From Octopus vulgaris (taxonomy: Eukaryota), in NCBI GenBank assembly GCA_951406725.2, contig OX597819.1, positions 83,948,001 through 84,012,000 of the forward strand: a DNA stretch of 64,000 nucleotides, in the 5' to 3' direction. The notes under the pieces were generated by a model. That model worked only from the letters and a program-made list of their open reading frames with translations. It was not told where the DNA came from and searched no databases. The first letter of the stretch is position 1. Each line of letters starts with the position of its first letter. A program made the translations under genes and the position numbers. Of the stretch, positions 18,783-59,075 are shown in pieces.

Positions 18783-20299
18783 TTACGCATGTATATTCAT
18801 ACATACATACATACATACATACGTATGTACGTACGTACGTGTATGTAAACATCGCATTATTTCATTTCGCACTTTTAGTATTTTACACACCATTTCATAG
18901 ATGAAAGATTTTCTTCCCACTTTACTGCTCCCCTCGCTTTCTCCTTATATATCTTCCATCTCTTTCCTATCTAACATGAGTCGACATGACAGTGCTTCTT
19001 CTACTCTCTCACCTTGTATATCTTGTTGCCTGCTTGCCGCCTTCCATCACACTAAACAACTACTGAACTGCAGAACAAGTTCGCGACAACGAACAACTTT
19101 ATCCCTATTACTGGTAAATTTTTCACTCACAACATTCACTCCGCACTGTTAATAACGATTGCTTCCATGTAGGTTTATTTTCGTCTTTCTTTTCCATTTT
19201 TTTTTTTACTTGAGCTACATAAATTTTAAAATATAAAGTGAGGAGTGTTTATAGCTTAAGGCAGGCTTGATCAAGTAGGCATGTGACAAAAGGCATTATT
19301 CCTGCCGTAAAATATACCATATTTTTTTTTTTTTGAGAATGTTTATTGACCAGTGACCACTCCTTCCTTATGTGTCGGATGTGATGGCACGGTGTTGATG
19401 CGGAATCTGGCTGCTATTTTTAACAGATCGTGTGACCATGTAGAATAGTCATGGGCAACGTGCGGTCCGTGGGACTTTCTGAATGGTACATCTACACTAA
19501 AAATTATCTTAAATTTTTGTAGTGCGCATCACGAAGAAAAGATTGCCCGTACCTGACGTAGAGGTTCCTTTGATTGACTCTTCTTCTCAGGGGTTAGATA
19601 GAAAAAATGACTTCTGATTTGGGTACCAGGATAGTAACTTTGCAGTGAGGTGGTTAGACGATTATATTGGCACCTAGTACTTGACTTTTACTTAATTATA
19701 TCGACTCTGAAAAGCAAGGTGCAAAGTCAATGTTGACCTCGGCGTTATTTGAATTTAAAACGTAATAAAGCGAGATTTTTAACTGAAAAAATTGATGTTA
19801 TCTTTTACAATTTTATTTCATATTCTTCGAACTTGCCTTTTATTGACAACTATTATTTCACTTGGACGACGGAATCATTTGGTGACGAAGACACTACTTA
19901 AATATACCAGTCGTATTACAACTATAAGCTTTTCGTACACTCAAAGTATACTTTAAAGTTGACAATACGTATGAAAAGTGCACTTGGTTACACTCGATAA
20001 CAGTGACATCTTCGTAACAGACGTACCTCATTGGTTATAAACCCTGTTGAGATAACGTAACTTTTTTCAGATTTAAATTTTGACTATTTGCTAATTACAA
20101 ACTTAGATTTTTAAAATTGAGACTTATATTGAATATCATTAAATTATCAATTAAGTAAATTATAACCAACTTACGATCAAATATAGGATGCTCCACACAC
20201 ACTCACACACGTACACACAAAATGCATACTCACTTTTACAACTGATAAGTCAATTTTCATTACTTTTTAGAATTAATTCATCGGAAATAACTGTTACAA

Positions 20300-20745
20300 A
20301 TTTTAACACAAGGCCAGCTGTTCTAGTGGGTGGAACAAGTCGATTATATCAACCTCAGTACTTGATCGGTGCTTTGTTTTATCAACCTGGATAAATGAAA
20401 AGCAAAGTTGATCTTGGAGATATCTGAACTCGGAATATAGAGTGCCAGAAGAAATGCTGCTAAGTATTTTGACCAACAGAAATGATTCTGCCAACTCGCC
20501 ACCTTTAATTCATTATAAATAATTGTTTCAAATTTTGGCATAAGGCTACCAATGTTAGGGGAGGGCTATGTCAATTATATTAACTCTTCTACTCAACTGG
20601 TGTTTTATTTTATTGGCCCCCACAAGGATAAAAGACAAAATTAACGACCTCAGTCATATTTGATCTCAGAACATAGGGAGCTAGAAAATTACCACTAAGT
20701 ATTTTGTCCAGAGCACCAACGATTCTTCCTTCTCTCTGCCATAAT
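20300..20745 (-). mobile_element. Two tandem Nin-domain-type SINE copies
   Basis: Each is homologous to the body of 41317-41551 (GGATAAATGAAAAGCAAAGTTGA..., TTCTGCCAACTCGCCACCTT) with the alternative tail GCCTT(G/A)TG.. on the element strand. Confidence 0.8.
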
Positions 20746-21765: not shown

Positions 21766-22438
21766 ATGATGATTACATATATTAGAAGTATTTAATACTA
21801 GAGAAGTAAAGGTGAATTGAGGTGTCATTAATTCAGCTAAACCATACCAGATTTTCAGAAAATAAGCTAATGGGTTCTGTTAATATGTCAGTGGGATTAA
21901 CTTTTCATCACCTAGAAAGTATTACAAAGGAAAGGATAGAATAGCCAAGGAGGTTTCCAAAGGATCAGATATAGTGTAAATAAGATAAAAATAAAATATC
22001 AGATATAGAATATAAACAGAACATTTCATATTAAGTCTGAAATATTTAGTTAAACTCCTGGAAAGTTTATTTAATAGTATTCAAGACCTACTTTGGACTT
22101 CAGTTGTTTCAAGAGTATATAGGTTAATACTAATAATAATAAGAACAACAACAAGAATGGTTTCAAATTTTGGCACAAGACCTGCAATTTTATTTTTTTC
22201 TGGTGGGATATTAAGTTGATTACATCAATGAAATTAATCTGGCAACCATGCTCATAATGTTTCTGAATTCCCTTAACGTTTTGCAGGACGGACTTAAGGG
22301 ACATGGTCAACTGGTTAAGGTCAAACAACTGACAAGCAAATCTGTGGTATTGAGCAGAATATTTGCTGTAGACCATTTTTATACCAAGATAAAATAATGT
22401 ACATGATAACACTTACAATCAGTTAAGATCAGAAGCCA

Positions 22439-24274: not shown

Positions 24275-24700
24275 TTCCTTTCTAAGGCCTGAAATTTTGG
24301 GGAAAGAGGTTAGTCAATTATATCACCCCCAGTACTCAACTGATACTTATTCTATCAGCCTAAAAAAGATGAAAGGCAAACGAAACCTTGGCAGAATTTG
24401 AATTCAGAATATAAAGCTGGAAGAAATGTTGCTAAGTATTTTATCTGGTATGCTAATGATTCAGCCAATCCTCTATCGTTAATATCTCCGATATTGGTTT
24501 CAAATTTTGGCACAAGGCCAGCAACTTCGGGGAAGTGGGTAAGTCAATTACATTGACCCCAGTGGTCAACTGGTATATCAATCCAGAAAAAAATGAAAGG
24601 CAAAGTTGACCCTAGTGGCATTTCACTCAAAATGTAAAAGTCGGAAGAAATGCTAAGCATTTTTCCAGCATGGTAATGATTCTTCCAACTCATCTCCTTA
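24275..24700 (-). mobile_element. Two tandem Nin-domain-type SINE copies
   Basis: Repeated GATGAAAGGCAAA...GAATTTGAATTCAGAA...GAAGAAATG units. Element-strand tail of the second copy is GCTGGCCTTGTGCCAAAATTTGAAACC. Confidence 0.8.
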
Positions 24701-39995: not shown

Positions 39996-41316
39996 GAAAA
40001 GTTCAATTTAAAGAAAAATTCAAATTTAAAAGAGTTTTCAAGTTTTTATTATAAATTGCTTCAAAAAATTGTGATTTTCGTAATTGGCATGTAAAACTAC
40101 ATCTGTGTGCAAACTTGGAATAAAATCGAACTATATATGAAATTAAAAGGATTCGCAAACACATACGTGTGTATATTAGTATGACCGCATCTTTAAGTGG
40201 CACATATATCGCAGTTCAAGTGGGAATTAAGTAGCAGTCCTTTTAGAGGTTTTATCTACAGTCACAAACGTCCAGGGAGAATATTCGTCTCCTGTCCTTG
40301 TACTGAGTTCAAAGCCAATTTCTGACTTCATGATCCCAAGCATGTCAAGTCTGTTGTATAGCAAGTGAAATGAACAAGAAAAAAACAGGGAAAGGTGAAT
40401 AACCTACTGTGTACAAAGTATAGGAATTCTACTTCTGAAATAAGACATTTGTACTTTTTCAAGGTCTATTCTATGAACAAATTGATGACACATTGCCTAG
40501 CACTTGCTAACATCTGAACCTCCAATTGGACATTCATCCAATATAAAAACTGCTCACTTTACTACTTAATATATTAGACTTGTTTCTTTAATGTTGTGAA
40601 TAAAACTAGATAATAGTGTCAGGAAAAATTATTTAGTGAAGTTTCGTAAATTTGGATAAGTTCATATACCATGGAAAGATTTCGGGGTAAGCCTTTCGTG
40701 TGAGAGAATAACACCAGGATTCTCTTTTCTTAAACTGTATACAAACTTACTCAGATTTATGAACCAAATTACGACACACAAGCTAAATTACCAACCAGCC
40801 AACCAGTCAGTCTGCCTACGAAGCATAGCTTAGCAGCCAAGTAGCTAATAAGACTACCTACTAACTGCCTGCTTAACAACAAACGTCTGTCATCTAAACT
40901 GTATATTAATTGACAATGAAGAATAATCAGCCGGACTTACGTTTATCAACAAACGTTATTGTTATTTTTTAAATTTACATTTTTAAAGTTAATGTTTCGA
41001 ACCTTTAACAGTTTCTCCGACGAAGAGCCTGGTAATTTTTTTTTTTTCGCATAGTTCATCAACATACCATTTTTTCCTTCTTTTTGCTCTGAATTGGCTC
41101 TATTTTTCTTGAATTCTGTGGCTACACTAGAGAAACAAATGGGACTTCTACGCGACCATTCGACAAACTACAAATTATCGCCAAATCTCCTTCACCTTAC
41201 TGTCTTAAAAACAAACGGATACATTAGATAATGCAGGCTTAGGTACACTACACATCAAATTAAAACCTTGTCTTGCCTTGAACCCTTGGATAGCCTCGTA
41301 ACTTGACGGAATACCT

Positions 41317-41551
41317 ATTTCTTTACTACCCACATGGGGCTAAACACAGAGAGGACAAACAAGGACAGACAAACGGATTAAGTCGATTATATTGATCCCA
41401 GTGCGTAACTGGTACTTATTTAATCGACCCCGAAAGGATGAAAGGCAAAGTCTACTGCTCGGCGGAATTTGAACTCAGAACATAACGGCAAACGAAATAC
41501 CGCGAAGCATTTCGCCCAGCGTGCTAACGTTTCTGCCAGCTCGCCGCCTTA
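41317..41551 (-). mobile_element. Nin-domain-type SINE, full length with TSD; tail matches the Tx1 LINE 3' end
   Basis: Perfect 17-bp TSD AACTTGACGGAATACCT at 41300-41316 and 41552-41568. Minus strand has a tRNA-like head (GGCGGCGAGCTGGCAGAAACGTTAGC...GAGTTCAAATTCCG), a central CCTTTCATCCTTTCGGGGTCGATTAAATAAGTACC (Nin-domain-like) and the tail GTTTAGCCCCATGTGGGTAGTAAAGAAAT. Confidence 0.88.
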
Positions 41552-41589
41552 AACTTGACGGAATACCTTCCTCTCATTACAGATATAGC

Positions 41590-41865
41590 GTGAAGGCGTG
41601 TAGTATAAGTGGTTAGTGTGTTGCACTCACGATCATGCAGTCGTACGTAGTTTCAGTTCCCGGACCGGGGAGTGCGCTGTGTTCTTGAACAAGACACTTC
41701 ATTTCACGTTGCTTTAGTATACTCAGCTGTAAATGAGTTACAACATTAACTTGAAAGTTAACCCTGTGATAGGACCAGTGCCCCATTCAGCGAGGAGTGC
41801 CGCAATCTGAGTCACTTATATGTCATGGAAACTGAGTTAAGCTCCGGCCTTATGAGTCATTGGGC
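41590..41865 (+). mobile_element. tRNA-derived SINE family C (related copy at ~11533-11790)
   Basis: tRNA-like head AGTGGTTAGTGTGTTGCACTCACGATC...GTTTCAGTTCC followed by TGTGTTCTTGAACAAGACACTTCATTTCACGTTGC, shared with 11533-11650. Confidence 0.7.
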
Positions 41866-42208
41866 TCATGGAAAGAGTGAGGGGGTGGGAAAGAGAATCG
41901 ACTCCAATAATAGACTGTTATTTTATTGACCCTGAAGAGATGAAAAGTAAAGTTGACTTCGATGGGATTTGAACTCAGAATGTTGAGAGTAAGAACGAAT
42001 ACTACAAACCATTGTCTCTGACGTTGTAATAACTCTGCTATTTCGCCGCACCGTATAAAAAGATGGTATGGTCACAGCTGGGACGTATATACAATTATAG
42101 ATTTGTTCGATCAGAGCTAACTTGAATGTAAACAATAAACCTACAAGCTAAACCGACGATGCCCAATCCCTTTTCAGTCAATCTCTATTTGTATCCCTAG
42201 TGTCTAAG

Positions 42209-42840
42209 CAGCGGTCCCCAATTGTTTTTGCGCCACAGACCTTTTTTATGGATGACAATTTTTTCCCGGTTCTAGGAACTACAAGCATAACAAAATACAA
42301 TAAAGTAATATAATTAATCATTGCATATATAATACATAAATATCATATACATAATATAATGCAAAAACACCCTACGAACTGCGATAGTCGGTACTTTTTG
42401 GATATCTCACCCCATTAAAAAATGCCATTAAAAATTGGGTTATCTCCCCACTAAAAAGTTGAGTTAATGTGGTGACAAGAGATTGGATTAAAAGGGTTAG
42501 ATCCTTTTGATTCAATATCTCAACATATTGTTGACTTTTGGCCTCCTCAAAAGGCATGGTATGATTTGTTATAAAAATATTATCAGATTCAATAAGATGT
42601 TTAATCTTTTCACTTTCCATGTTTATTAATTTTTCATTTTTTTTTTGTTTTATTGAGGGTTGAGCAATTTTTCAGTTGGAGGAGATAACGCAATTTTTTA
42701 ATGAGGTGAAATAACCAAAAAGTACCCGATAGTCAACAAAACAAATAAAATTTTAAAATTTATTATTTCTGTGCGGCCTGGTACCAAGTGATCCACGGCC
42801 CGGTACTGGTCTGCGACCCCGTAGTTATGGATTCTTCCTT
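42209..42840. mobile_element. hAT (Charlie-like) MITE hosting the Merlin insertion
   Basis: Starts CAGCGGTCCCCAA. Right part GCGGCCTGGTACC...CACGGCCCGGTACTGGTCTGCGACCCCGTAGTT is typical of hAT MITE subterminal sequence. Right TIR decayed. Confidence 0.6.
42390..42726. mobile_element. Merlin-type MITE nested in a hAT MITE
   Basis: GGTAC...GTACC termini, ~30-bp imperfect TIR (GGTACTTTTTGGATATCTCACCCCATTAAAAA), perfect 8-bp TSD CGATAGTC at 42382-42389 and 42727-42734. Confidence 0.82.
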
Positions 42841-44320
42841 ATAGTACTGCCTAAAAGAGTTGTTTATACAACACTGTAGGGGATAAATGTCCCAAAAGGT
42901 TCAGAAAGCCTTCACTCAACGCTGGATGCAGCAATTCAAATGCTTTCTGAAGCAGTAACGCCCATTTTAAACTAGCTACTGAACTAGTTAAACAGTCATT
43001 TAAAGCTACTGCTCAATTATTCTAAATGATCTATAAGACATCCACACGCACACACATTTTTATTTTTGCAGTATGTAGCGTTGCATTAAATAATGAGTAA
43101 AAAGACACATAATAAATGCACAAACTAACGGAAAACAGACACAGATGGTCGCCAACTCCTCATCATTTATCAGCCAGAGGGTCAACCACAATTTCGTATC
43201 TAATATACACAAATACATATTCTTTTATTCATTTCAGTCATGCCGTATACATAGATATATTTGTACAGAAGTAACTACGTAACGTATACACTATGCAATA
43301 CAAGCGAAAAGCAGCATCTAATTACTCTTTTCACACTATACAAATGCACATACGTATCAGTGGCGTTTTCTGCATGTATGCAATGCATGCTTTAAATAGT
43401 TTAGAATATACAAATGAATGCAAATAAAGATGATTTTACTATAAAACCTTTTTGTTTTTTTTTTAATGTGAGACAGTTCGAAAGGAGGTACATACATGTT
43501 TATATGTACCCTACTTTAATTATATAGCGTTGATTTTTAATATTGTACGCGCTGACTTTAAATGAGTTCTGTAAACATGAAAAGAAATACAACTAATTAG
43601 CAGCCTTTGCACAACAAACATATCTAGTATAACTAATGAAAAGTTTCCTTGCACTTTTCAGGACATCAACAATGAATGGCTGAGAAGAGTCGTCGAAAAA
43701 TTTTCGTTCATGTTTATTGTTGAAAGATTGTACTGGACACGATGATCCAGAATGGAGAAGCGAAAGACTGTTCTTTTGCTACAGTTGTGTGGTTTAAAAC
43801 CTGTTCCGTAATCATATAAACATGACAGAGATGGAGGAGAGATATTGTGTGTGCAATGTGTCATTTGCTATAGTATAGTTATAGTGTAGCTTTAGACCTT
43901 TAATGTTCACAAATATGACTGGCAAACAGCTGATTGCTGGATAACGGCTGACCTGATGCTTGACCGAGTTAAATTCCTTCCTCCTGTTCAACATTCAGAT
44001 CTGGTCTATTTTCTTCTCGCTGAATTTGCTCCATGTTGAGTTTGACTGATATGTAATCAACAAACTTCATTAGATAGTTTTTTTTTTCTGATACCAGTCA
44101 TTAACTTTGATGTGTAGTTGTTGAAGGTCATTGGTTAAAGCTGTAAGCATTCATATTCAACACGTTCGGATACATTTAAATGTAGAAAGACTTCCACTGC
44201 GGTAACTGTTTCGAAACAGGAATATTTTTGATAAACAATGAGCTGGACTATAAATGATGGCAATGAACATGTTTCTGTGTGGTTATGCTTCACTAGCTAC
44301 AGACACCGAACCCGTCGTTC

Positions 44321-45881
44321 ATTAAATCTTTATTATAGGCACGATGGCTGCAAAACAGGACGTGGGGTACAGATAATAAAAAAAATCGAAAAATATGATA
44401 TGAAAATGAATTATTTGTAATGAATTAAATGGAATGGCTTACGAGCCCCCCAAAACTCGTAGTTTCATTTAAAATACAATTCTGCTATACTGGGCGTTCA
44501 TCTGTAATGTATTCTATTAACTTCTCCTGGTCTACAATCGCTGGCAAACTGTCGTAACGGATATATTGCATTTCACAAACAGTCGAAAACACACTTTTCA
44601 ATTTCATAAATGTCTCTTTCTCTACGACCGCCGACTTCACTTGGTCATCAAATATTTTTGGGTTCAACCTAACCCTGATTAAACCTTTCTTACCTGCCAG
44701 TCTCTTTTCGATTTCTTTGTCTTTCATATACAATATTACTACTTTAAGATTTTTTCCTTCGGGTCTTCCTCCTTCTTTACATACTTTTAACTTCTCTTCC
44801 ACACTTCTTTCTCATTCTTGGTTTGCCGTTAAATTTGCCGGTTCTCTCGCTTTCGCTTTTGCATTCTTATCTTCGCACGTTCGATCTTCCATCTCGTCTG
44901 TAGTCTTATTTTTCGCTTTTTTCTTTTTTTGAACTTTAGGTGGTGATTCCACCCTCGTTCTATCTTCTTTTCCTTCTGTTTCTCCAACTCGTCACCACTT
45001 TCCACATTTTCTGTGTTCACACATTCTTCATCCGCCATCTGCAATATCTCTGTCTGCGCCTCCAATGTTCTCGTCGGACACCCATCTTTCATGTGGCCTC
45101 TAATTTTGCATTTGTAGCACACAGGGGGTCTTCCCTCTACCACGACTCTGAGTCGTGTCTCGTCGGGGAACACCAACTCCTCTGGAATGTTATACAGGTC
45201 TGGCATGGTTATATGGACCAACGCCTGCACCGCATAACCCCACCACTGTATATCTTTTGACTTTTCCACGTTCAATATTTCAACGCTTTCTTTGCAGTTG
45301 AATATCACTGCCGCTAAGATTCTTTCCATGTTCAGCTCCGGCGAAATCTTACTGATTCGTATTCTTACTACCCTTTTTCCACGATAACTTGGTAATAACA
45401 TCCATTTTTCTGTTTTCAGTATTTGCGTGGCACTCTTCTTCGCTTCGTCTTCGTTTTTAAAAAGAACGACCACTGTTGCGTATTTTCTACCTCTATTATA
45501 GAAGGTAGGCTCTCCTTCAACTCCATTCAGACAGCACTCAATCTCCCCTATCGGCGCCACTTCTACTTTCTTTGAAGCCAAGTTCCACGTTCTGTATGTT
45601 ATAATACGTTTTTCTGCTTCTTTCGCTTCTTCTTCAGATGGTGTGACCTTCACACAGTCACCTTCCTTCTTTAAGCTGTCGAAATATTTCTTCAAAATCT
45701 CCTTCTCGATGATAACTTCTTCCAACTGCAATTCCCGCATACGTTTGGGTTTGCATTTTCGAGAAAAACCTCCAAAAAATTCCCCACGCCGCAACCGCTT
45801 CCACCAACGAATTCGATCTCACAACCGCGACACAACAATAACGTAATCAAATTTTCCGACACCAAAAAAACCAACAAAAGG
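44321..45881 (-). mobile_element. ORF1-only non-autonomous retroelement (HAL1-like 'half-Tx1')
   Basis: Flanked by a 15-bp direct repeat with 1 mismatch: CCGAACCCGTCGTTC at 44306-44320 and CCGAACCTGTCGTTC at 45882-45896. Contains only an ORF1 homologue plus short UTRs. Minus-strand 3' end is ...GCCATCGTGCCTATAATAAAGATTTAAT. No endonuclease or RT sequence between the TSDs. Confidence 0.85.
44485..45740 (-). pseudogene. Divergent Tx1-type ORF1 homologue with a frameshift (~44945) and one in-frame TGA (44812-44814)
   Basis: First ATG at 45740. Aligns by eye with the neighbouring ORF1: EAEKRIITYRTW/EIEKRTVIFKTY, TFYNRGRKYATV/TFLTRGKRYGTV, LKTEKWMLLPSYRGKR/LKTDKITLLPIYRGRR, VEGRPPVCYKCKIRGHMKDGC/VEGRKPRCFTCGKKGHIKKDC. 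The C-terminal part continues in the frame of track ORF 44485-44802. Confidence 0.85.
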
Positions 45882-46240
45882 CCGAACCTGTCGTTCCTTG
45901 TCTACTAAGAACTGCCGTTTTATATGTAAATGGCAAATAATAAATTTGCTGGCATATGCAAAGCTCTGTCAAACTAGAATTAAGTAATTCAAGCACATTA
46001 AGCAGCAACTATAAAGATAATGCTATGTACATTTATATTGAATTCGTTCATGTACACGCAATTGGCTGTCTGACGAGGCTTAATGTTTTGTCCCGACTAA
46101 TCAACACCTATATAAAGTTGTCACTGTTGCTACTAAAAACAAAAACAAAAAGAAAAAAAAAAAGTAAGTTGTTTTTTTTTTCGTTAGTCGAATTTGTTTG
46201 ACTAATTTCAGTGAAGACGCTGAGGAGGGGTAGACCAATA

Positions 46241-47578
46241 ATGGCCAGCCCGAAGGCGGACAGAGCGGAAGACCAAACCCAGGTCCTTAGTCCAGAGATG
46301 TCCAGCCTGGAAGGAATAATGGCTATACCCGACATTTTCTCGGACGAGGAGGAAAGTGGGAGAGTCAGAAGAAGTATAGATGTGCCAAGCATGGCAAGGA
46401 AGGTGCTAAACTTCGCCGAGGCAGCTAGTCCGAAGGAAAGAAGGATTAACCTAACAAGGGTGGAAGAAGCGAAAAAGATAGTATCTCGAGACGGGTACAA
46501 GATCAAACTGAACCAGACGAAAGAATCTCTCGAAGAGATAGAGAAGAGAACGGTAATATTCAAAACATACCGTAACATGGAAAGGAAAATAGACTTTTCG
46601 TCGGAAAAGGAAGTGGAGGCGTGCCTACTACCCATCTGGGATAAAATCACATTTTTAACCAGGGGTAAGAGGTACGGAACCGTGGAAACCAGGTTCAAGA
46701 CAGAAGAAGAAGCGAGGGAACATTCAATGAAACCCCTGAAAACAGACAAAATAACCCTTCTACCTATTTATAGAGGAAGGCGTATTTCAAAAATTACGGT
46801 TGCCAACATACCGCCGGAGATCGAGCCCGAACTGATAGTGGCTGGGGTCACTGCAGGACTGGAAGACCAAATGGAAGTGCGTGATGCCACGGTGATAGAA
46901 GCCAAAAAGTGGCAAGGACAGAAAGTACAAATTATTGTACAGGCAGAGCAGGTCGCCTTGGAAGAGATAGGCGAGGTCATCGAAATAGGAGAGAGCCGGA
47001 TGGCAGTAATGGTGGAGGGCCGGAAGCCCAGGTGTTTCACCTGTGGCAAGAAGGGCCACATCAAAAAGGACTGCAAGCCGGCGGAGAAGGAAAAGAGCGT
47101 ACCCACAAAACCAAGTGCTCAAGTGGCGGCAACAGAAACAACAGCCGCAACAGAAGTAGGGGAGGGGTGGTCACAGATTGCTGCGACAAAACGAAAGCAC
47201 AACAACCCCTCCTCGGAGAAAATTATAAGCAAAGAGAAGAGAGAAGTGAAGAAGGCGAAGAAGCCGGAGAAGGAGAACAAGGTGTATGTGGCGATGAATA
47301 TCGCAAACAGAGAAGTGGTACGCAGAGTGGAGACTCAACACGTCGAGGAGGTGGAGATGGAAGCGAAAGGTGGAGGTTGGAGATGCTACGTGATGGGACT
47401 GAAAGGGTTCAACACGTTTGCAAACGATTTTAGAAAAGACGTAGGCACACCCAGAATGAGCAAGGAGGATGCCCTGAAGGATGCAGAAAGGAAGAACAGC
47501 AACGCGCCGAGTCCACGTTCATCTGAGGCAGAAGAGACGGGTCCCCCCCGCCGGCCGGACCCAGAGGAAATAAGGTAG
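46241..47578 (+). CDS. Tx1-type ORF1 (Gag-like nucleic-acid-binding protein with CCHC zinc knuckle)
   Basis: Open frame 46211-47578 with first ATG at 46241. Motif VEGRKPRCFTCGKKGHIKKDC (C-X2-C-X4-H-X4-C) followed by a basic/acidic low-complexity tail. Lies directly upstream of an APE-RT ORF. Confidence 0.9.
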   Translation: MASPKADRAEDQTQVLSPEMSSLEGIMAIPDIFSDEEESGRVRRSIDVPSMARKVLNFAEAASPKERRINLTRVEEAKKIVSRDGYKIKLNQTKESLEEIEKRTVIFKTYRNMERKIDFSSEKEVEACLLPIWDKITFLTRGKRYGTVETRFKTEEEAREHSMKPLKTDKITLLPIYRGRRISKITVANIPPEIEPELIVAGVTAGLEDQMEVRDATVIEAKKWQGQKVQIIVQAEQVALEEIGEVIEIGESRMAVMVEGRKPRCFTCGKKGHIKKDCKPAEKEKSVPTKPSAQVAATETTAATEVGEGWSQIAATKRKHNNPSSEKIISKEKREVKKAKKPEKENKVYVAMNIANREVVRRVETQHVEEVEMEAKGGGWRCYVMGLKGFNTFANDFRKDVGTPRMSKEDALKDAERKNSNAPSPRSSEAEETGPPRRPDPEEIR

Positions 47579-47585
47579 GCAAACT

Positions 47586-50500
47586 ATGGCTGTTTACGTT
47601 GGTTGCATAAATGTGCGCGTCCTGGTAGCGAACTGGAAACAAGGTCGTTTACTAAACGATATCAGGGCGCGGAATTTAAATGTAATTGTCGCTACTGAGA
47701 CACGAATCGAAGGGCCAAGAGATCTACTCCCGCTCATGGAAGACTACGAGAAATTTATTTCTCCTGGACGGCATGTGGGCGGGAGTGGGGTGTTGGTTCT
47801 GCTTAAAAAAGATAGTGTCGCAGAGAAAAAGTTGATTTTTTCTGATTCAGAAGGTAGGCTGGTCGTCTTAGATCTGACGTTCAGTTGTGGTAAAGAAATC
47901 AGGCTGGTGGCGGTGTATGCACCTAATACGGGTCAGACTGATTTTTATCGAGGCTTGGAGAAGTTTCTTGGCACGTCAAAATCCATAGTCATGTTAGGGG
48001 ACTTTAATGCCATAGTCGACGCGCACGTCGATGGCATTGGCTCGAAAGATAGGAAACCAAACGCTGGCTTCCGGGATCTACTGAGTCGCTTTCAGCTAGT
48101 AGATCCCTACAGACTTGAATTCCCGAACGCTCCACAGTGGACGTGGTTAAGTGGCGACGGGTCTGTCGGGTCTTACATAGACAGAATTTTTATTAGAAAA
48201 ATAGATAAAGGATTAGTTAAGTGTCCACAGTTTCACACGGTCAGTTACAGCGATCACAGGATGGTCACTGGCGAACTGAACCTAGATAAGTTAGGTAGTA
48301 GGGGATCCGGCTACTGGAAACTCAATAAGTCCCTCCTGGCTATTGAGGAGTACAGAAAGCGGATCGAGTTAGTAGTGAAGAGGGCGTTAACCGGTTCCAT
48401 TATTAACAACAAATGGTGGTACGCCCTCAAAAGAGCCATCAAATACGAGTCCGTTAGATACAGCATAGGTCTAACAACTAGCGGGCGTAAGAAAGAGATG
48501 GGGCTAGTTAAGGCCTTAGAGGAAGCCATCAGAGCTGGCGATAGGGCCCAGGTTAGGCTGAGGAGACTGGAGTTGAACCAGCACCGCGAAGCCCAACATA
48601 TGGGTTGCATCGTCAGAGCTAGAATTCGCGCAATGGGGTGCGAGGGTATCAAGGCTACCGGATGGGCACGAGTTGTGGAGGCTCAACGTGGAAACGATTC
48701 CACAATTAAGTCTGTGACGAACGGGCGAGGCGATGTGATCACCGAACCAGAGGAGATGTGTCGGACGTTTCAGGAGCACTTCGCTCGGCTCTTTGGGGGC
48801 GACGGCGGACCGGAGGAGAGGGTGGACCTAACGGACATCCTCGCCGGGCTGCCGCGCCTCTCGGGGCAGGATGCGGAGAGCTGTGAAGCGTCGATCTCGC
48901 CTGAGGAGATTGCCGAGGTCCTGGCCGACTGCGGCGAAGGCAGGGCGCCGGGGATCGATGGTTTACCTTACGAACTATATAAAAGAATGCCAGACTTGTT
49001 CGGGAACGTGCTGGCCGGCGTTTTCACGAACTGGCGGCAGAATGGGTTCATTCCCAGGTCTGTACGTCGGGGAGTGGTGACGCTGATCAGGAAGGACCCG
49101 AGCAAGGGGGACAACATAGACAACTTTCGGCCCATCACACTGCTAAACACAGAGGTGAAGATTTTGGCCAAGGTGTTAGCGAAAAGGTTGACGCGTGTCG
49201 CGGGTGGTCTGATCGGGGAGGCACAAACTTGTGCGATCCCTGGAAGAACCATCCAGGACAATCTTCACCTAGTACGCTACACAATAGAAAGGTTTGGGAA
49301 TGACTCTGGCAAGGGTGGGGCATTGGTCCATTTAGACCAGAGTAAAGCGTTTGATAGGGTGAACCATTGGTACCTGGTGTCCGTGCTGGCGCAGTTCGGT
49401 CTCGGCATTGGCTTCCTCAGGTGGATCATACAGTTGTACGATAACATCGACTCGATCGTTCGGGTGAATGGCTTCCTGTCGAAGCCGTTCCGCATCAAAC
49501 GGTCTGTTCGTCAAGGGTGTCCGCTCTCCCCGATTTTGTATGTGATGGCTCTCGAGCCATTGCTGCGAAAGCTGAGCGCCATCCCGATGAATCCAGGAGG
49601 TGGAGGATCTGTGACATCGTATGCGGACGACATCACCATCATCGTGACCGAGGTGGAACTCCTACGTAATGTGGGAGACGCCATCAAGGCTTACGAGACG
49701 GTGACAGGAGCAAAGATTAACCGGGAAAAATCGGTCGGCTTGCAACTCGGCACCTGGAGGGGCAAGTCGATGCCTTCGAATAGCATCGTGGGATGCTGGA
49801 CGGAGGGCCCGGTTAAGCTGCTAGGGATCTGGTTTGGTCCAGGTCTCCAGATAGAAAAGAACTGGTCTGAGGTGTCGGGCAAGGTGGCTCACGCGGTCGG
49901 GACTTGGTCCGGACGGTGGCTGTCCTTGAAAGGGAGGGCGGAGGTGGCCAATGTGTTTTTAGCATCGGTCATCACCTACCGCCTGACTGTCGTCCCTTGT
50001 CCGGATTCGTGGTTGAGCAAGTTGGAGAGACAGATCTTCCGCTTTTTGTGGAAGGGAAGTGCTCCTCTTGTAAGACGTTCTATCTGCTGTCAGAAACCGT
50101 TAAAGGGTGGCTTGGGGATGCCTTGGCTGATGATGCGCAGAGATGCGCTGAGGTTAAGGCACCTTTGGCTCTACCTGGATGGTGAACGGGTGTGGTCCCC
50201 GCTTGCGAAGCAGATGTTCCCCAGCTTTGTCAGTTTCGGTGGCAGAGAAACCTGGTTTCGTCGCAGACTTAGATCGAGCATGTGGTATTCGGAGTGCCAT
50301 AAGGCACTCTGCCACTTCCGCAGGTCGGGCAATGCCGGCGGCTTTGGTACCACCGCAGCTTTCTATAGCAGGTTGGTAGAGGCCGAAAATGACGATGCCT
50401 TAGGAAGGACCTTGGACCTCGATAGAAATCAGTTGGACAGCCTGTTCCGAAGGACGTTCGGGCCGAAGACATTGGATAACTTCCAGAAGTCTTTGACCTG

Positions 50501-50972
50501 GCAATGTTTCAGAGGAGCTTTACCCGTTCGGGATAAACTCACAAGGCATGGTTGGAGTGGACCATCGAACTGCCCAAGATGCGAGCGGGATCTGGAAACA
50601 GTCTCGCACGCTATTGTTCAGTGTCCGGAAGTCTCGGACGTGTGGGTATATGCCGAACACCTGTTGTCGGACGGAAGAAGAGTACAGCTATCGGCTGAGA
50701 CAATTATAAAAATTGACTCGCCTAGCTTTTTGACAAGTGAAGGTAAGCATTGCTTTCTCAGTACAGTAGCAGTAGCGAAAGAGTGTATATGGAAGACCAG
50801 AATGAAAGCGGTAACGACAGGCACCGTGATCTCTGGCTCCGCCTTGGTGACCTATTTCAGGTTCCACCTAAAAAGAAAGGTGGAATTAGAGAAAAGGTGT
50901 CTGTCTGCGTGTGAGTTCGATAAAATATGGAAGCGTGTGGCACGGTTGCTGCGAGTGAGAGGAGCCACGTAA
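47586..50972 (+). CDS. Tx1-type ORF2: APE endonuclease + reverse transcriptase + C-terminal zinc finger (1128 aa)
   Basis: APE motifs INVRVL, ATETR, VYAPN, LGDFNA, IDRIF, SDH. Tx1/L1 linker GYWKLNKSLL. RT motifs NFRPITLLN, LDQSKAFDRV, QGCPLSP, YADD. KGGLG thumb. C-terminal CPRC...HAIVQC. No stops or frameshifts. Confidence 0.96.
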   Translation: MAVYVGCINVRVLVANWKQGRLLNDIRARNLNVIVATETRIEGPRDLLPLMEDYEKFISPGRHVGGSGVLVLLKKDSVAEKKLIFSDSEGRLVVLDLTFSCGKEIRLVAVYAPNTGQTDFYRGLEKFLGTSKSIVMLGDFNAIVDAHVDGIGSKDRKPNAGFRDLLSRFQLVDPYRLEFPNAPQWTWLSGDGSVGSYIDRIFIRKIDKGLVKCPQFHTVSYSDHRMVTGELNLDKLGSRGSGYWKLNKSLLAIEEYRKRIELVVKRALTGSIINNKWWYALKRAIKYESVRYSIGLTTSGRKKEMGLVKALEEAIRAGDRAQVRLRRLELNQHREAQHMGCIVRARIRAMGCEGIKATGWARVVEAQRGNDSTIKSVTNGRGDVITEPEEMCRTFQEHFARLFGGDGGPEERVDLTDILAGLPRLSGQDAESCEASISPEEIAEVLADCGEGRAPGIDGLPYELYKRMPDLFGNVLAGVFTNWRQNGFIPRSVRRGVVTLIRKDPSKGDNIDNFRPITLLNTEVKILAKVLAKRLTRVAGGLIGEAQTCAIPGRTIQDNLHLVRYTIERFGNDSGKGGALVHLDQSKAFDRVNHWYLVSVLAQFGLGIGFLRWIIQLYDNIDSIVRVNGFLSKPFRIKRSVRQGCPLSPILYVMALEPLLRKLSAIPMNPGGGGSVTSYADDITIIVTEVELLRNVGDAIKAYETVTGAKINREKSVGLQLGTWRGKSMPSNSIVGCWTEGPVKLLGIWFGPGLQIEKNWSEVSGKVAHAVGTWSGRWLSLKGRAEVANVFLASVITYRLTVVPCPDSWLSKLERQIFRFLWKGSAPLVRRSICCQKPLKGGLGMPWLMMRRDALRLRHLWLYLDGERVWSPLAKQMFPSFVSFGGRETWFRRRLRSSMWYSECHKALCHFRRSGNAGGFGTTAAFYSRLVEAENDDALGRTLDLDRNQLDSLFRRTFGPKTLDNFQKSLTWQCFRGALPVRDKLTRHGWSGPSNCPRCERDLETVSHAIVQCPEVSDVWVYAEHLLSDGRRVQLSAETIIKIDSPSFLTSEGKHCFLSTVAVAKECIWKTRMKAVTTGTVISGSALVTYFRFHLKRKVELEKRCLSACEFDKIWKRVARLLRVRGAT

Positions 50973-52599
50973 ACATGCTGTAGGTTGGCTGCCGAGTTTC
51001 GGTGGGAATAGCAGGGCTCGTGGGGTCGGCAATCCTGGTGTTCCCACTTCATGTGTTCCCTTTATGTTGTGTTGTTGTGTATCATTCGATTTATCCGATT
51101 TTGTGTAATTTAAAAAAAAAAAAAAAAAGTTCATTTTTCTGTAAATACCATTTGTGTCTCATGACCCCAAATCATGATGTATTGTCCCATTCTTCGTTGG
51201 CCCCTTGTGGGTAATAAAGAAATAAATTCGTTCATGTACACTCAAACGTGAAAATATCTTCGTTGCAGTAGCTGTCTCGGGAAAAAAATCTCTTTATAGA
51301 CAATATATTTGAAGACAAAATCCGGGTTTTTGCATATTGAAAATAGAGAGTCCCGATTTTCAACTTTCAGGTTGAGATCTGTTACATTATTTCTTCGGCA
51401 GGGAGTAGGATACAAGCGAAATCTGTCAGCATCTACCTATTTACGGTATTACATTGGACAAGACAGACCATAGTTCTTTTTCAAAGACGAGCTAGGTAAT
51501 ATAGGAAGAGAGCTAGTCAATGATATTAATGTTAAAACAACAACTACATTTTCGGCAAAGTTCTCAATGACAAACTTGACTTTACAAATCTTATACTGAT
51601 TGTTTTTGAGGTGTGAATATTCTATTAGAAATCATTATTTACAGCTGTCTTAATCACATTTGAGGTGTTAGTTGCGAGTGCAATTGAGCAACGGGTGGCA
51701 GGACTTGAATGTGTTGCCGCTCTTTAGTTTGGAATACACAACTGAAAGCTTATCTCATTTGCTGGAATTAATTCAACTGTAGTATGGATTTTAAAAGTAG
51801 TATTTTCTGTATTCATTCTCATGTAAGAAAAACAACGTACTAACAAAAATTACCAATTAGTAGTGGACGTAGTTAGTATTAATGGATTCATCGATTTCTG
51901 AAGAAAATCATTCTCGTTTTCGAATATCAATTTCACTTGCGTTTGTATATTATACGAGATGTTTTGATCTCTGTGGTAGGAGGTAGCCGTAATTTGTTTA
52001 TTACCGAGATAGTATTTGACTTGTCTGAGAGGAAGGGGAGAAAAAAGGAAGAACAAGTAATTGCCATAAAGAATATGGAGCTTCTATTAATTTCTTTGAA
52101 ATTCCCTTTTTGTTTCGATTTCAAGTGTAATCGGTGGTCAAAACTATATAGTTTATCCTTCCTGAATCAATAAAATAAATATCAGTTTTGTGTAGAGCTG
52201 ATTCAATAAGGCTAAACCTTTCCTCCTACATGCACACAAGTTTTTCCAAGGGAGAATCCTCCGGCTTCTAATGCAGTTTGGTACCTGTATCGTAGCAGGC
52301 GTTGCTGTCAGAACGCAAAGAGCCAGAATAGATACTGCAAGGCAATTCGCCCGACTTTCTGACTGTTCCATCAATCCAATCCACCATCCTGGTTTGGTAC
52401 TTTTTTAATGACACAAAGACAAAGATGACTTCAACTGGATTTTAAGTCAGAGCTCAAAAAGCCGGGACAAATACTGCGTGATATTCTGTTCAACACTCTA
52501 ACGACTTTGCCAATTCACTACCTTAATCCTATCTTTAAAAAAAGTAACAAAAAAGAAAGAAAAATTATTAAATGATGCCATGTTTGTAGTTGGATCCGC

Positions 52600-53329: not shown

Positions 53330-55620
53330 CTATACGAAGCTATAACTGACATTTGGAAATATATTTCAACGTATTCCATTCAAAAGAAAGGCAACCCTAC
53401 TAGTTCAGCTAATTATCGTCCTATTTCATTCCACTAAGGTAATGCAGACAGCTATTAATAACATTGTATAACCTGAGTTTTGTCCTTGGGTAGCAACTGT
53501 CATTTCCTATTTGCTTACCCCTAGAAATTATGAAAAATGGCCAATATTCACTTCAAACTTTGCTTTTGTTGCGATATTTATTCAAACTCCAAAGAATGGA
53601 CAACTAGAAGTAAACTGAACTGTCGAGCTTATGATCCCTCTATTCATACTGCTATCTATGCTACCAGAACGTTCTAGAAATTCTTGAAACTTTTAAAAAG
53701 TTCTTGAAATTTCTAGAAAGTTCTAGAAAATTCTGCTTCAGCAACTCAGCGCTGAATCTATCAGAAATGTAATGGAAAATAAGTTAGTTTCAAAACATTG
53801 ATGTCCAGGTCAGAATAGCAAAGTTTGAAGACAATAGTAGTCATTTTCTTTGATTTCTAGATAGAAGAAAATACAAAATAACACTTACTGACCAAACCAT
53901 AAAATAAAAAAAAGTAAATATAAATTTTGTTACACAGTGTTATCGTCCTATTGCATTCACACAAGGTAATGGAAACAGCCATTAATAATTCTTTCTAATT
54001 TTTAGTACAATGCCAGTAATTGGTAGGGGTGGGCATGTTGCTTACATCGACTCCAGAGCTCAACTGGTACTTATTTTATCGACGTCTGAAGATGAAAGGC
54101 AAAGTCAGCCTCAGCGAAAGAAATTCCGTTCAGCATTTTATTCGGCGTGCTAACGATCCTGCCAAGCTTGTCGCCCTAAGACAACCATTTCAAATCATTC
54201 GAGAGAGGGAGTAAGTTGATTACATCGACCCCAGTACTCAACTGGTACTTATTTTATCGACGTCGGAAGTTGAAAGACAAAGTCGGCCTCGGCGGAAGAA
54301 ATTCTGCTAAACATTTTGATCAGTGTGCCAACGATTCTGCCAGCTTCCCGCCCTAAGAAAACCATTAATAACGATGCTCTTGAACATCCTCTCACTCACT
54401 CTCTCTCTTTTCCCCATTGAGAACACCCATACGGCTTCTGTAGGGTCAGATTCACGAGAACATACTCTTATGTCACTCACCAGTAGGTTCTTGCTCTAAA
54501 GAAGTTCAGTGAAAGCAATGTTGTTGCTGCCCTAGTCATCAGTAAATCTTTCTACCGTATCTAATATGCGAATCTACTATCAAAACGTCCTGCCTTGAGT
54601 TCCAATAATTTCTCATGTCTCAGATCGGTAGCCTCCAATTAGATCATAACGTTGCGGCATGTGTTGACAGAGTTGTTTCTATCTGATCTAAATCAGTTCT
54701 GGTGTACTCCAGATTTCGATTTTGTCCCTCACGTCCTTCTTCACATCAATGAACTGTTTGCCGCCACATTCCAATAATGCCCAATCTTCTGCAAATGTAA
54801 TGCTAATCGATCGAAAGGCTCTTTTCTGGATGCGGTCCAGGATATCCATGTGTGTAACAGTGGAACCGTCTCAGTAGTGGGAGTACTCCATTGCAGACCC
54901 CTAACCTTCCCCAATCATGCATCATCTACACGTAACCTAGACTTCACGTGCCATGTTTGCATCAATTCCATGCATCTTCCAGAGAACATCCTTCAGTGGG
55001 GCCATGTGATTCATGGCTTTTTTAAAAGAAACAAAATTCATACCAAGAAAAATATCCCCGCCCCTAAACATGAGTAACCATTCTGTTATAGCATCACAGG
55101 TGCTCCAAACACAGTGCCTCACTATCACTGAGGATCTCAGCAGGCGTGAGCTTAGAAGCGCATCTCAAAAACTGGCTTTTCTCCTCAGGGTCAGAAAATA
55201 TTTCAGTTGTGACACTCTTCAAAGCTCAGTCGAGTCCACAATGGAGCACTGGTCTAATATCTGGGATGGTGCTGCTGCTACTGCTACTACTACGCACATG
55301 GGCATCCTGGACAGCATCCAGAGAATGGCCACTCGATTGAATGACATTAAATCACTGGTCCACAGACATACTATCCACTGTCTTTGTTTCTTCTATCCCT
55401 ACCTTAATGGTCTCTGTCCCTCCGAAATAGCTGGTCTCATACCTCCCATCACTCAGGTACCCCTGACTTACTCGGCGGTGCACTCTTGTTGAGACCAACC
55501 CTTCCGATTCTGCATTAACAAGTATCCTTCTCTGAACATCGATCTTCTGGAAGCTTCTCCCTGTTCATGTCTTTCCTACAGATGTTGAACTGCAACAGTT
55601 TATTTAAACGTAACGTTAAT
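53330..55620 (+). pseudogene. Decayed CR1/Jockey-like LINE RT relic with nested insertions
   Basis: Peptide patches QKKGNPTSSANYRPIS, YGF, ALVISKSFYR (ALDISKAFDR-like), SGVLQ.SIL, HINEL, SASQKLAFLLRVRKYF, MEHWSNIWDGA, LDSIQRMATRL. Interrupted by SINEs at ~53990-54355. Confidence 0.7.
53990..54355 (-). mobile_element. Two tandem Nin-domain-type SINE copies
   Basis: Duplicated CTCAACTGGTACTTATTTTATCGACGTC...GAAAG.CAAAGTC.GCCTC.GCG units. Confidence 0.8.
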
Positions 55621-56311
55621 ATCACACTGATCGGTCTTGGAGAGCATGCAAAGACAGGGGCGCTGCCCCGACCGCCAGACTCAGCAAGTAAAATAAATAA
55701 ATAAATAAATATTGTGATGCTTTCCTGGTTCACTATCTGCTTAAGCCGTTTGAAGACTGAAAACTGTAATAATTGTTTCTACTACAGGCACAAAGCCAGA
55801 AATTTGAGGGCAAAGATTTAGTTGATCACATTGATCTAGTATATGACTGGTACTTTGCTTTATTGACCACGGAAGGATGAAAGCAAAATTCCCCTCAGTG
55901 GTATAATAGACAAAGGTCTAAAAAAAATGTAGATGATTTTTTATTTGTTTTCGTTTTCCATGGTCAAACACGCCTATATGGTACATGTGTGTGTTCGCTT
56001 AGCTAGGGCGTAGATATTAAAATCTTCATTTTGATATTACACCAAACTCCCTACCAAGAAAGTTTACAGTATAGTGTATGGATGGAAATGTTTCGAATAG
56101 ATTATTTTGATAGGTATTAACCTCTGTGTTCCATGAAACAGAAATAGACACCGAAATTTTGGAAGTTACTCTGACGAAGAAAAAGACATGTAAGGTATAC
56201 ATAGTTGATAATGCAGCGATCATTTGTTTATAACAGCATTTTCTCCGGCGACAATCGACTGGTACAACCCCCCCCCCCCCAAAGAAAGCCCCGAATACGC
56301 GTAAGCTTGGA

Positions 56312-57828: not shown

Positions 57829-59075
57829 TATGAAGAGGTGCTGGCTGAGTGCTCTAGGGACAAATCACCGGGGCTGGATGGTCTGCCCTACGAATTTTAT
57901 TGTAGCATGCCGGACTCGTTCGGACACTTGCTGGCGCATGTCGCGGAGAGACTTGTTGGGAGGGCGCAGACATGCGCCATCCCAGGTAGGTCAATCCAGG
58001 ACAATCTCCATCTCCTACGTTACACCTTAGAGAGGGTGGGTAAGTTATCCGGTAAAGTTAGGGCTCTGGTCCATTTAATCCAGAGTAAAGCTTTTGATAG
58101 GGTAGACCACCAGTACCTGGCGGCTGGGCTAGTCTCGGACTTCCGTGGTTGGATCAACGCCATTTATGGCGGCATCAAATTCACAGTCCAGATAATCAGT
58201 TACCTATCGGTGCCGTTTAGGATCGAGCACTCGGTTCATCAGGGGTGCCCTCTGTCTCTGCTTTTGTATGTACTGGCTCTTGAGCCATTGCTGTGGAGGT
58301 TGGAGAGTTTGGGGAGCATCCCCAATGAATTGGGATGGGGTAAGTCTGTTTCTGCATATGCGGATGACATCACCGTGTCCGATGAAGCTCAGCTACTTTA
58401 TGTAGAAGATGCGACCAAAGGATACGAGACGGTGGCAGGGGCAAAAATTAACAAGGCCAAGTCCATTGGCTTGCGGCTCGGCACCTGGAGTGGCAATACG
58501 ATAATGTCCAGTGTCATAGGGCACTGGACGGAAGGTCCTGTTAAGTTGCTTGGAGTTTAGTTTGGACCGGATTCCCAGACGGAGAACTGGAGTGAAGTGG
58601 CAGATAGGGTAGATGCCCTCATCTGGACCTGGTCTGGAAGGGCGCTATCCCTGAACGGGAGGGCGGAGGTGGTGCAGGTGTATATTGCATCTGTTATCAC
58701 TTACCGTCTGACCGTTTTCCCTTGCTCTGATTTGTGGCTAAACAAGTTGGGACGCCTTCTCTTGCGCTTTTTGTGGAGGGAGAGAAAACCGCTTGTGAGG
58801 CGCTCTGTTTGCTGACAAGAACCGCTAAAGAGTGGCTTAGGGATACCTTGGCTGATGATGTGCATACATGCGCTGAGGCTAAGGCACCTCTGACTTTATC
58901 TGGAGGGTGCCAGGTGTGGAATTCGCTGACGAAGAAATTCTTTCTGAGATTGGCCTCCTTGGAGGAACTCAAACCCAACTTCATTAAAAGACGCAACCCG
59001 ACTGAATGGCAAAAGGAGTGCCAACAGGCACTCGTGCTAATCCATAAGGCGAGCAAAGCCGGCAGCGGGAATATA
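57829..59075 (+). pseudogene. Decayed fragment of a related Tx1 ORF2 (RT region)
   Basis: Track ORFs 57838-58560 and 58597-58815 match ORF2 (PGLDGLPYEFY, AQTCAIPGRSIQDNLHL, QSKAFDRV, QGCPLS, YADD, WTEGPVKLLG, RAEV..V..ASVITYRLTV). It has stops, an internal deletion and truncation at both ends. Confidence 0.92.

Follow-up and report, generated by a model that had tools for sequence, protein, structure and literature searches.

A Tx1-like LINE and a tRNA-type SINE of Octopus vulgaris share their 3′ tail and form a candidate partner pair

Does a long interspersed element (LINE) of the L1/Tx1 group mobilise an octopus short interspersed element (SINE) with which it shares its 3′ end? The question is raised by a stretch of 64,000 nucleotides from Octopus vulgaris (assembly GCA_951406725.2, contig OX597819.1, positions 83,948,001 to 84,012,000 of the forward strand; the whole stretch is called the window hereafter). 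SINEs make up about 11.6% of the genome of this species, which also contains 13 L1-Tx1 families with recent copies (PMC13282606; PMC numbers here and below refer to the accessible parts of these papers). An initial annotation of the window had paired one LINE with one SINE on the basis of their common tail. The two elements and their parts are as follows (TSD, target-site duplication; ORF, open reading frame; RT, reverse transcriptase; UTR, untranslated region):

46058..51223, plus strand: L1/Tx1-group LINE, full-length, delimited by its TSD and with intact ORF1 and ORF2
46041..46057, plus strand: left TSD of the LINE, 17 bp, exact
51225..51241, plus strand: right TSD of the LINE, 17 bp, exact
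46241..47578, plus strand: ORF1, 445 amino acids, one CCHC zinc knuckle
47586..50972, plus strand: ORF2, 1128 amino acids, AP-type endonuclease, RT and zf-RVT, no internal stop
50973..51223, plus strand: 3′ UTR of the LINE, 251 nt
51112..51128, plus strand: internal A17 run in the 3′ UTR, not the end of the element
51178..51223 (core 51197-51223), plus strand: LINE tail in common with the SINE, predicted hairpin GCCC-CTTGT-GGGT, then AATAAA (51213) and GAAAT
41317..41551, minus strand: SINE, 235 bp, with tRNA-like head, A-like and B-like boxes, body and LINE-like tail
41317..41361 (core 41317-41343), minus strand: SINE tail matching the LINE end
41300..41316, no strand assigned: TSD copy of the SINE, 17 bp, exact
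41552..41568, no strand assigned: TSD copy of the SINE, 17 bp, exact

The LINE and the SINE stop at the same base. Anchored at this end and without gaps, the two sequences were identical at 18/20, 24/27, 26/35 and 32/45 positions, and a gapped alignment gave 35 identical columns out of 47. The tails are thus co-terminal, as had been annotated; of the roughly 45 nt said to be in common, about 27 nt form a solid core and a fainter likeness extends to about 45 nt. When the last 60 nt of the SINE were compared with 2540 tiles of the window, the LINE end ranked top with a score of 39 (best elsewhere, 29), and none of 5000 dinucleotide shuffles reached this value (maximum 33). The end of a CR1/Jockey-like LINE in the window, the sole non-L1 LINE end compared, did not match the SINE tail (15 vs 39). 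At the 165 AATAAA sites of the window, scored at equal offset, the LINE end alone reached 20 and the next best site 9; the match therefore comprises more than a polyadenylation hexamer. The SINE copy reads AGTAAA at the hexamer, yet it has the same end base as the LINE. In the LINE 3′ UTR the sole AATAAA lies in the shared tail, none being present upstream of the A-run, and the roughly 50 nt that separate the A-run from the shared core are not SINE body.

Neither terminus carries a poly(A), and the exact 17-bp TSDs given in the initial annotation were recovered for both elements (one copy of each element; a single A, 51224, separates the LINE tail from the right TSD). The window contains just two exact copies of the LINE TSD, AATTCGTTCATGTACAC, at 46041-46057 and at 51225-51241; allowing one mismatch extends it to 21 bp, and the 5′ end of the LINE is accordingly 46058 or 46062. 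A motif ATT(C)CGT is found in the TSDs of LINE and SINE alike, out of register by 3-4 nt. In Pfam, ORF1 matched zf-CCHC only (residues 264-279, E 3.7e-5), and ORF2 matched Exo_endo_phos (22-224), RVT_1 (509-748) and zf-RVT (968-1020). A TATA-like box lies at 46107-46114, about 50 nt inside the 5′ end of the LINE, with A and T runs facing each other behind it.

Four of 24 public runs (X1, X2, X4 and X15) provided contigs in which to look for other copies of the LINE; the contigs were aligned to positions 50500-51400 with at least 85% likeness. The unique 3′ flank of the LINE had a summed contig depth of 52 (X1), 63 (X2) and 6.6 (X4), these being the three runs that covered it; in each of the three a long contig ran from 51198/51199 into the flank, so the insertion is real. 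In the bin 51151-51181, which lies past the A-run but short of the shared core, the depth was 5181, 2813 and 392 in X1, X2 and X4, i.e., 44-99 times that of the flank, matching the level of the UTR upstream of the A-run (6638, 2806 and 409). At least three listed contigs spanned the A-run, each with 31 or more letters on either side of it, and all differed from the window copy: 51012-51224 with 15 other letters and 13 gaps, 51075-51217 with 10 other letters, and 51077-51187 with 8 other letters. LINE copies diverged by about 7% retain the identical end point. The loose ends listed behind 51224 were mutually discordant (agreement 0.52-0.62), and therefore represent different flanks at one end point. 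Other, diverged copies of the LINE thus carry the tail beyond the A-run, and the tail is the end of the LINE family; whether copies end in it was a check that the initial annotation had named.

Within the shared core a second, far higher level was reached. The bin 51182-51212 had a depth of 365,000, 446,000 and 50,000 (X1, X2 and X4), about 7000 times that of the flank. The depth in X1 was still 5,100-5,800 at 51189-51190, which places the jump in the shared core; a repeat much commoner than the LINE has only the last ~30 nt in common with it. This abundant repeat is probably the SINE family studied here, because the SINE of the window matches exactly there and because two loose ends, behind 51232/51233, consist of SINE-head sequence. 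Contigs at LINE-level depth mostly had C at 51189 (4/4 runs) and at 51190 (3/4 runs), which extends their pyrimidine match with the SINE beyond that of the LINE copy in the window. Loose ends at 51178-51191 show the tail joined to further repeat types, whose upstream sequence is related, TTGTCCCC-rich and up to ~186 nt long; these may be sister families of Tx1 or different passengers. A joint of 51053 to 51196 was present in three runs.

The LINE belongs to the L1 group by its protein sequence. With an N-terminal AP-type endonuclease, an RT and a C-terminal CCHC in ORF2, its architecture fits the Tx1/L1 group. Tx1 elements carry a CCHC zinc knuckle in ORF1, unlike the ORF1 family of vertebrate L1, and many of them, though not all, prefer a target sequence. 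All 11 element ends examined here, a small number of sites, had A, CA or GA and an AT-rich stretch behind them, and in two contigs SINE-head sequence came after the tail. The closest solved structure to ORF2 was human L1 ORF2p (230 bits, E 4e-67), and R2 reached at most 91 bits (E 4e-25). An Rfam scan of 12 related loci detected U2 snRNA sequence after ORF2 in three (L003, L012 and L014); insertion into U2 is a hallmark of Keno-type Tx1 elements (PMC4494074). Against these three U2-inserted elements ORF2 scored 434, 391 and 460 bits, compared with 230 for human L1 ORF2p at equal database size. The best named relative of ORF2 was an Argonauta hians protein (60% across the RT region; among the best 120 of 780 matches). 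In a quick RT tree of 92 rows without mammalian L1, the window protein joined P0001 and the Argonauta protein (99), the backbone being unresolved. Membership of the Tx1 clade, as originally annotated, is therefore likely: it draws on similarity (391-460 vs 230 bits) rather than on a resolved tree. Among the related loci, L003 (1-123, 782-896, 5806-5947), L012, L014 and L001 appear as U2-inserted Keno-type elements, and L003 and L001 bear an additional U2-like piece upstream of the ORFs.

The type of the SINE had to be revised. Judged by consensus patterns, it has an A-like box at 14-24 and a B-like box at 78-87, with a long hairpin between them; ARAGORN and Rfam detected no tRNA in it. The SINE had been annotated as carrying a Nin domain. 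Its body showed no likeness by eye to the Lottia_Nin sequence (PMC4758252 supplement), and the 13-letter Nin/Deu motif with up to 3 mismatches had seven matches in the window (10.7 expected), none inside the SINE; these comparisons did not support the label. By eye the body was neither Meta nor CORE (compared with BivaMeta, BivaMD and BivaCORE), a slight resemblance being limited to a few letters at the CORE 3′ end, so that it appears to fit none of the Nin-DC, Meta and CORE domains compared. Octopus tRNA-derived SINEs were reportedly described by Ohshima and Okada in 1994 under what are said to be the names OK, OR1 and OR2; like the SINE studied here, they are octopod SINEs of tRNA type with high copy number. 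OR1 and OR2 are CORE-SINEs (PMC4824008). Unlike these, the studied SINE shows no CORE by eye, and its neighbour at ~41590-41760 does. This neighbour, a CORE-like SINE on the plus strand, adjoins the studied SINE and by eye resembles BivaCORE-SINE2.

Both tails are predicted to fold as GCCC-CWUGU-GGGU, a 4-bp stem with a 5-nt loop located 11 nt from the end, the stem being unvaried; in the LINE the predicted stem extends into a long imperfect hairpin. About ten older SINEs of the window have the same head and body (one example: 125 identities, 40 mismatches, 20 gaps). Their tails read TGGC-CTTGT-GCCA at 11-12 nt from the end and lack a poly(A); loop and spacing are like those of the young tails, and up to 3/4 stem pairs are changed on both sides. 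Over 11 ends, 39 of 44 stem pairs were standard, compared with 8-21 when the stem was slid (counts exclude the MAFFT alignment A2, in which the loops were out of register). As the older tails were chosen by a motif that contains the stem, and as the stem change counts as one event, the signal of compensatory change is weakened, and the two-sided changes are only suggestive. A post hoc motif (loop, 9-10 nt, GAAA) had eight matches in the window vs 1.6 expected, seven of which were element ends. An automatic TSD search at nine older SINE loci yielded scores between -1 and 14, most of which fell inside the null range. Some of the older SINEs stand in head-to-tail pairs on the minus strand (20293-20743, 24277-24700 and 53990-54355), with apparent TSD copies between them. 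At 22159-22215 (minus strand) a tail of the older type sits on upstream sequence lacking the usual head and body, being either a 5′-truncated copy or a different element.

A second element of this kind lies beside the LINE:

44324..45881, minus strand: second Tx1-related element, ORF1-only (HAL1-like), 16/18 TSD, no poly(A), no ORF2

It stands head to head with the LINE at a distance of ~180 bp, and its ORF1 shares 34% identity with that of the LINE over 199 amino acids. The element ends 5 nt past AATAAA. This end resembles the LINE tail weakly: 13 of the 165 AATAAA sites score as high, and for this reason we did not count it as support for the shared tail. Its TSD score of 12 was reached by one of 60 random pairs. 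Like HAL1 (PMC5786205), the element has only ORF1 and its own TSD and lacks ORF2; unlike HAL1, its ORF1 is of the Tx1 type. A short T-rich stretch in its 5′ UTR is in common with that of the LINE.

How might the shared tail work? That LINE and SINE form a candidate partner pair is well supported by the tail match and by the family-wide end, as the initial annotation had it; the recognition that it also proposed we infer. We consider it likely that the Tx1-group LINE, or a close sister family, mobilises the tRNA-type SINE by recognising the common tail, with no poly(A) being copied. The ORF2 protein of this family or its sister would bind the predicted CCC-CWUGU-GGG hairpin close to the RNA's 3′ terminus. 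Target-primed reverse transcription would then begin some 12 nt beyond the stem, 5 nt downstream of AAUAAA, and this start point would apply to the family's own transcript as well as, in trans, to that of the SINE, yielding TSDs of ~17 bp and no poly(A). With the start point fixed, sequence beyond it, whether a poly(A) of the LINE transcript or read-through in that of the SINE, would be left uncopied. At the nicked target, a T may pair with the A found behind both ends. In terms of direction, the ancestor of the SINE would have taken its tail from the LINE.

Several observations weigh against this reading or against the family-wide end of the tail. Strong identity is limited to ~27 nt. The depths are summed contig depths and not copy numbers; the bridging contigs and loose ends are those listed, with 3681 pieces and 270 loose ends beyond them. 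The depth also dips over 51058-51150. The predicted hairpins did not exceed shuffled sequences in stability (z -1.3 for the LINE, -0.2 for the SINE), and a profile built from eight older SINE tails missed the ends of the LINE, the SINE and the ORF1-only element (ranks 91, 352 and 39 among non-training peaks). The tail was absent from all 80 distant ORF2 relatives (25-46% amino acid identity; metagenome loci), whose best scores against it, 26-32, were at background level and at non-terminal places, and several of them end A-rich (17 of the 80 were inspected by eye past ORF2); the tail is therefore not a Tx1-wide trait.

These points can be read in other ways. An ancestor of the LINE could have captured the 3′ end of a SINE by template switch or by an early, fixed transduction, and a different LINE would then drive, or have driven, the SINE. 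With a SINE tail so much commoner than the LINE, chance capture would be easy; the A17 run 95 nt upstream of the LINE end and the lack of the tail in distant relatives also agree with this scenario. We nevertheless regard it as unlikely: at LINE-level depth ~50 nt that are not SINE body lie between the A-run and the core, LINE copies diverged by ~7% keep the same end, other repeat types reach the tail at 51178-51191 with related upstream sequence, LINE and SINE alike lack poly(A) and are flanked by TSDs of 17 bp, and the neighbouring ORF1-only Tx1 relative also ends 5 nt past AATAAA without poly(A). Alternatively, the tail could be common by descent and serve merely as a 3′-processing signal (AAUAAA and its context) for an enzyme relaxed like that of mammalian L1. 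The tail does hold the sole AATAAA of the LINE UTR, and the stability of the hairpin was not significant; however, a poly(A) was copied at neither end, the SINE ends at the same base in spite of its AGTAAA, and the likeness runs well 5′ of the hexamer, all of which makes this explanation distinctly improbable.

The initial annotation had itself offered another alternative, in which the A-run marks the end of this LINE copy, a single 3′ transduction event having added the final ~95 nt. The A17 at 51112-51128 and the dip in depth would be expected from it, but the dip coincides with a zone skipped as repeat by the tool (51101-51139) and with indel variants. A one-off event is contradicted by the multi-copy depth of the sequence past the A-run in three runs, by the diverged contigs bridging the run, by the mixed flanks and by the position of AATAAA in the shared tail alone; it was rejected and would now be very surprising. 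Mobilisation of the SINE through its LINE-like tail remains the reading that we prefer. On a wider scale, and more tentatively, octopod Tx1 elements could be stringent: they would recognise a terminal hairpin whose loop is CUUGU and begin reverse transcription a fixed distance away from it. Successive Tx1 families would have driven successive waves of the SINE lineage that dominates in octopus (old GGC-CTTGT-GCC and young CCC-CTTGT-GGG tails), along with ORF1-only passengers; this is conceivable rather than probable.

Pairs of SINEs and LINEs with a common tail are known from other clades. Those with L2, CR1, RTE and I/Nimb partners, such as eel UnaSINE/UnaL2 and the bivalve HCD SINEs, have a co-terminal 3′ tail and a predicted stem-loop like the octopus pair (PMC3747384, PMC11481361). 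Unlike them, the octopus pair has a partner from the L1/Tx1 group and 17-bp TSDs, and lacks a terminal microsatellite or poly(A). Among 58 SINE/LINE pairs, L1 tails were reported in three, from maize and Chlamydomonas, and stringent pairs of the L1 clade are known from maize/sorghum and Chlamydomonas (PMC3472496). In maize ZmSINE2/3 with LINE1-1_ZM and in Chlamydomonas SINEX-3_CR with L1-1_CR, as here, the LINE belongs to the L1 group and the SINEs carry a conserved 3′ end of ~45-50 nt with a hairpin (PMC3472496). Those pairs involve plant and algal L1 lineages and homopolymer ends, whereas the octopus pair is animal and Tx1-like, with a blunt end and another sequence.

In the crocodilian SINEU/Tx1-Mar system, too, a SINE was proposed to be mobilised by Tx1 (PMC4494074). 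SINEU elements have snRNA heads and poly(A) tails and are linked to Tx1 by target preference, whereas the octopus SINE has a tRNA-like head and is linked by its tail; for the 3′ half of SINEU-1 no similar LINE was found, according to the available text of that paper. Tandem SINEU insertions sandwich a TSD (PMC4494074), and the similar pattern of the older SINEs in the window may be likened to SINEU-3. For bivalve SINEs the partners named are CR1, L2, Nimb and I (PMC11481361, PMC4824008), and the term Tx1 does not occur in the accessible text of PMC11481361; neither a Tx1 partner nor an octopus SINE appears in Table 1 of PMC3747384. Neither a tail-sharing Tx1/SINE pair nor a partner LINE of an octopus SINE was found in the literature searched, which held few subscription papers, had Repbase and Dfam outside its range, and included the accessible parts of PMC13282606, PMC4758252, PMC5804259, PMC3531059, PMC13295347 and PMC8967140. 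In this literature tail-sharing L1-group pairs come only from grasses and Chlamydomonas. The pairing had been annotated as unusual for the group, which holds among animals in the literature searched; L1-clade pairs do exist in maize/sorghum and Chlamydomonas, and Tx1 had been proposed to drive SINEU.

An intact Tx1-type copy with the common tail is a candidate engine for the expansion of SINEs in octopus. It could also provide an animal test of Ohshima's proposal that the L1 group was ancestrally stringent and became relaxed in mammals and plants (PMC3472496, PMC3747384), for which the complete ORF1/ORF2 pair and a mutable signal of 30-45 nt make the octopus system usable. Stringent octopod Tx1 elements, if real, would constitute an animal tail-sharing system of the L1 group and would support its ancestral stringency.

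Patterns of the tail and SINE body gave 0 matches in viral, metagenome and prokaryote collections and in plasmids, and no relative of ORF2 was found in viral contigs; octopus DNA is not expected in such collections. Two further LINE remnants lie in the window. The CR1/Jockey-like LINE, a label that we presume in the absence of a Pfam match, is represented by a 3′ part at 55010-55715 (plus strand) that ends in (AAAT)n. At 57840-59070 (plus strand) a decayed ORF2 fragment of another Tx1-like family, with 69% DNA identity to the LINE and without a 3′ end, is flanked by an AT microsatellite.

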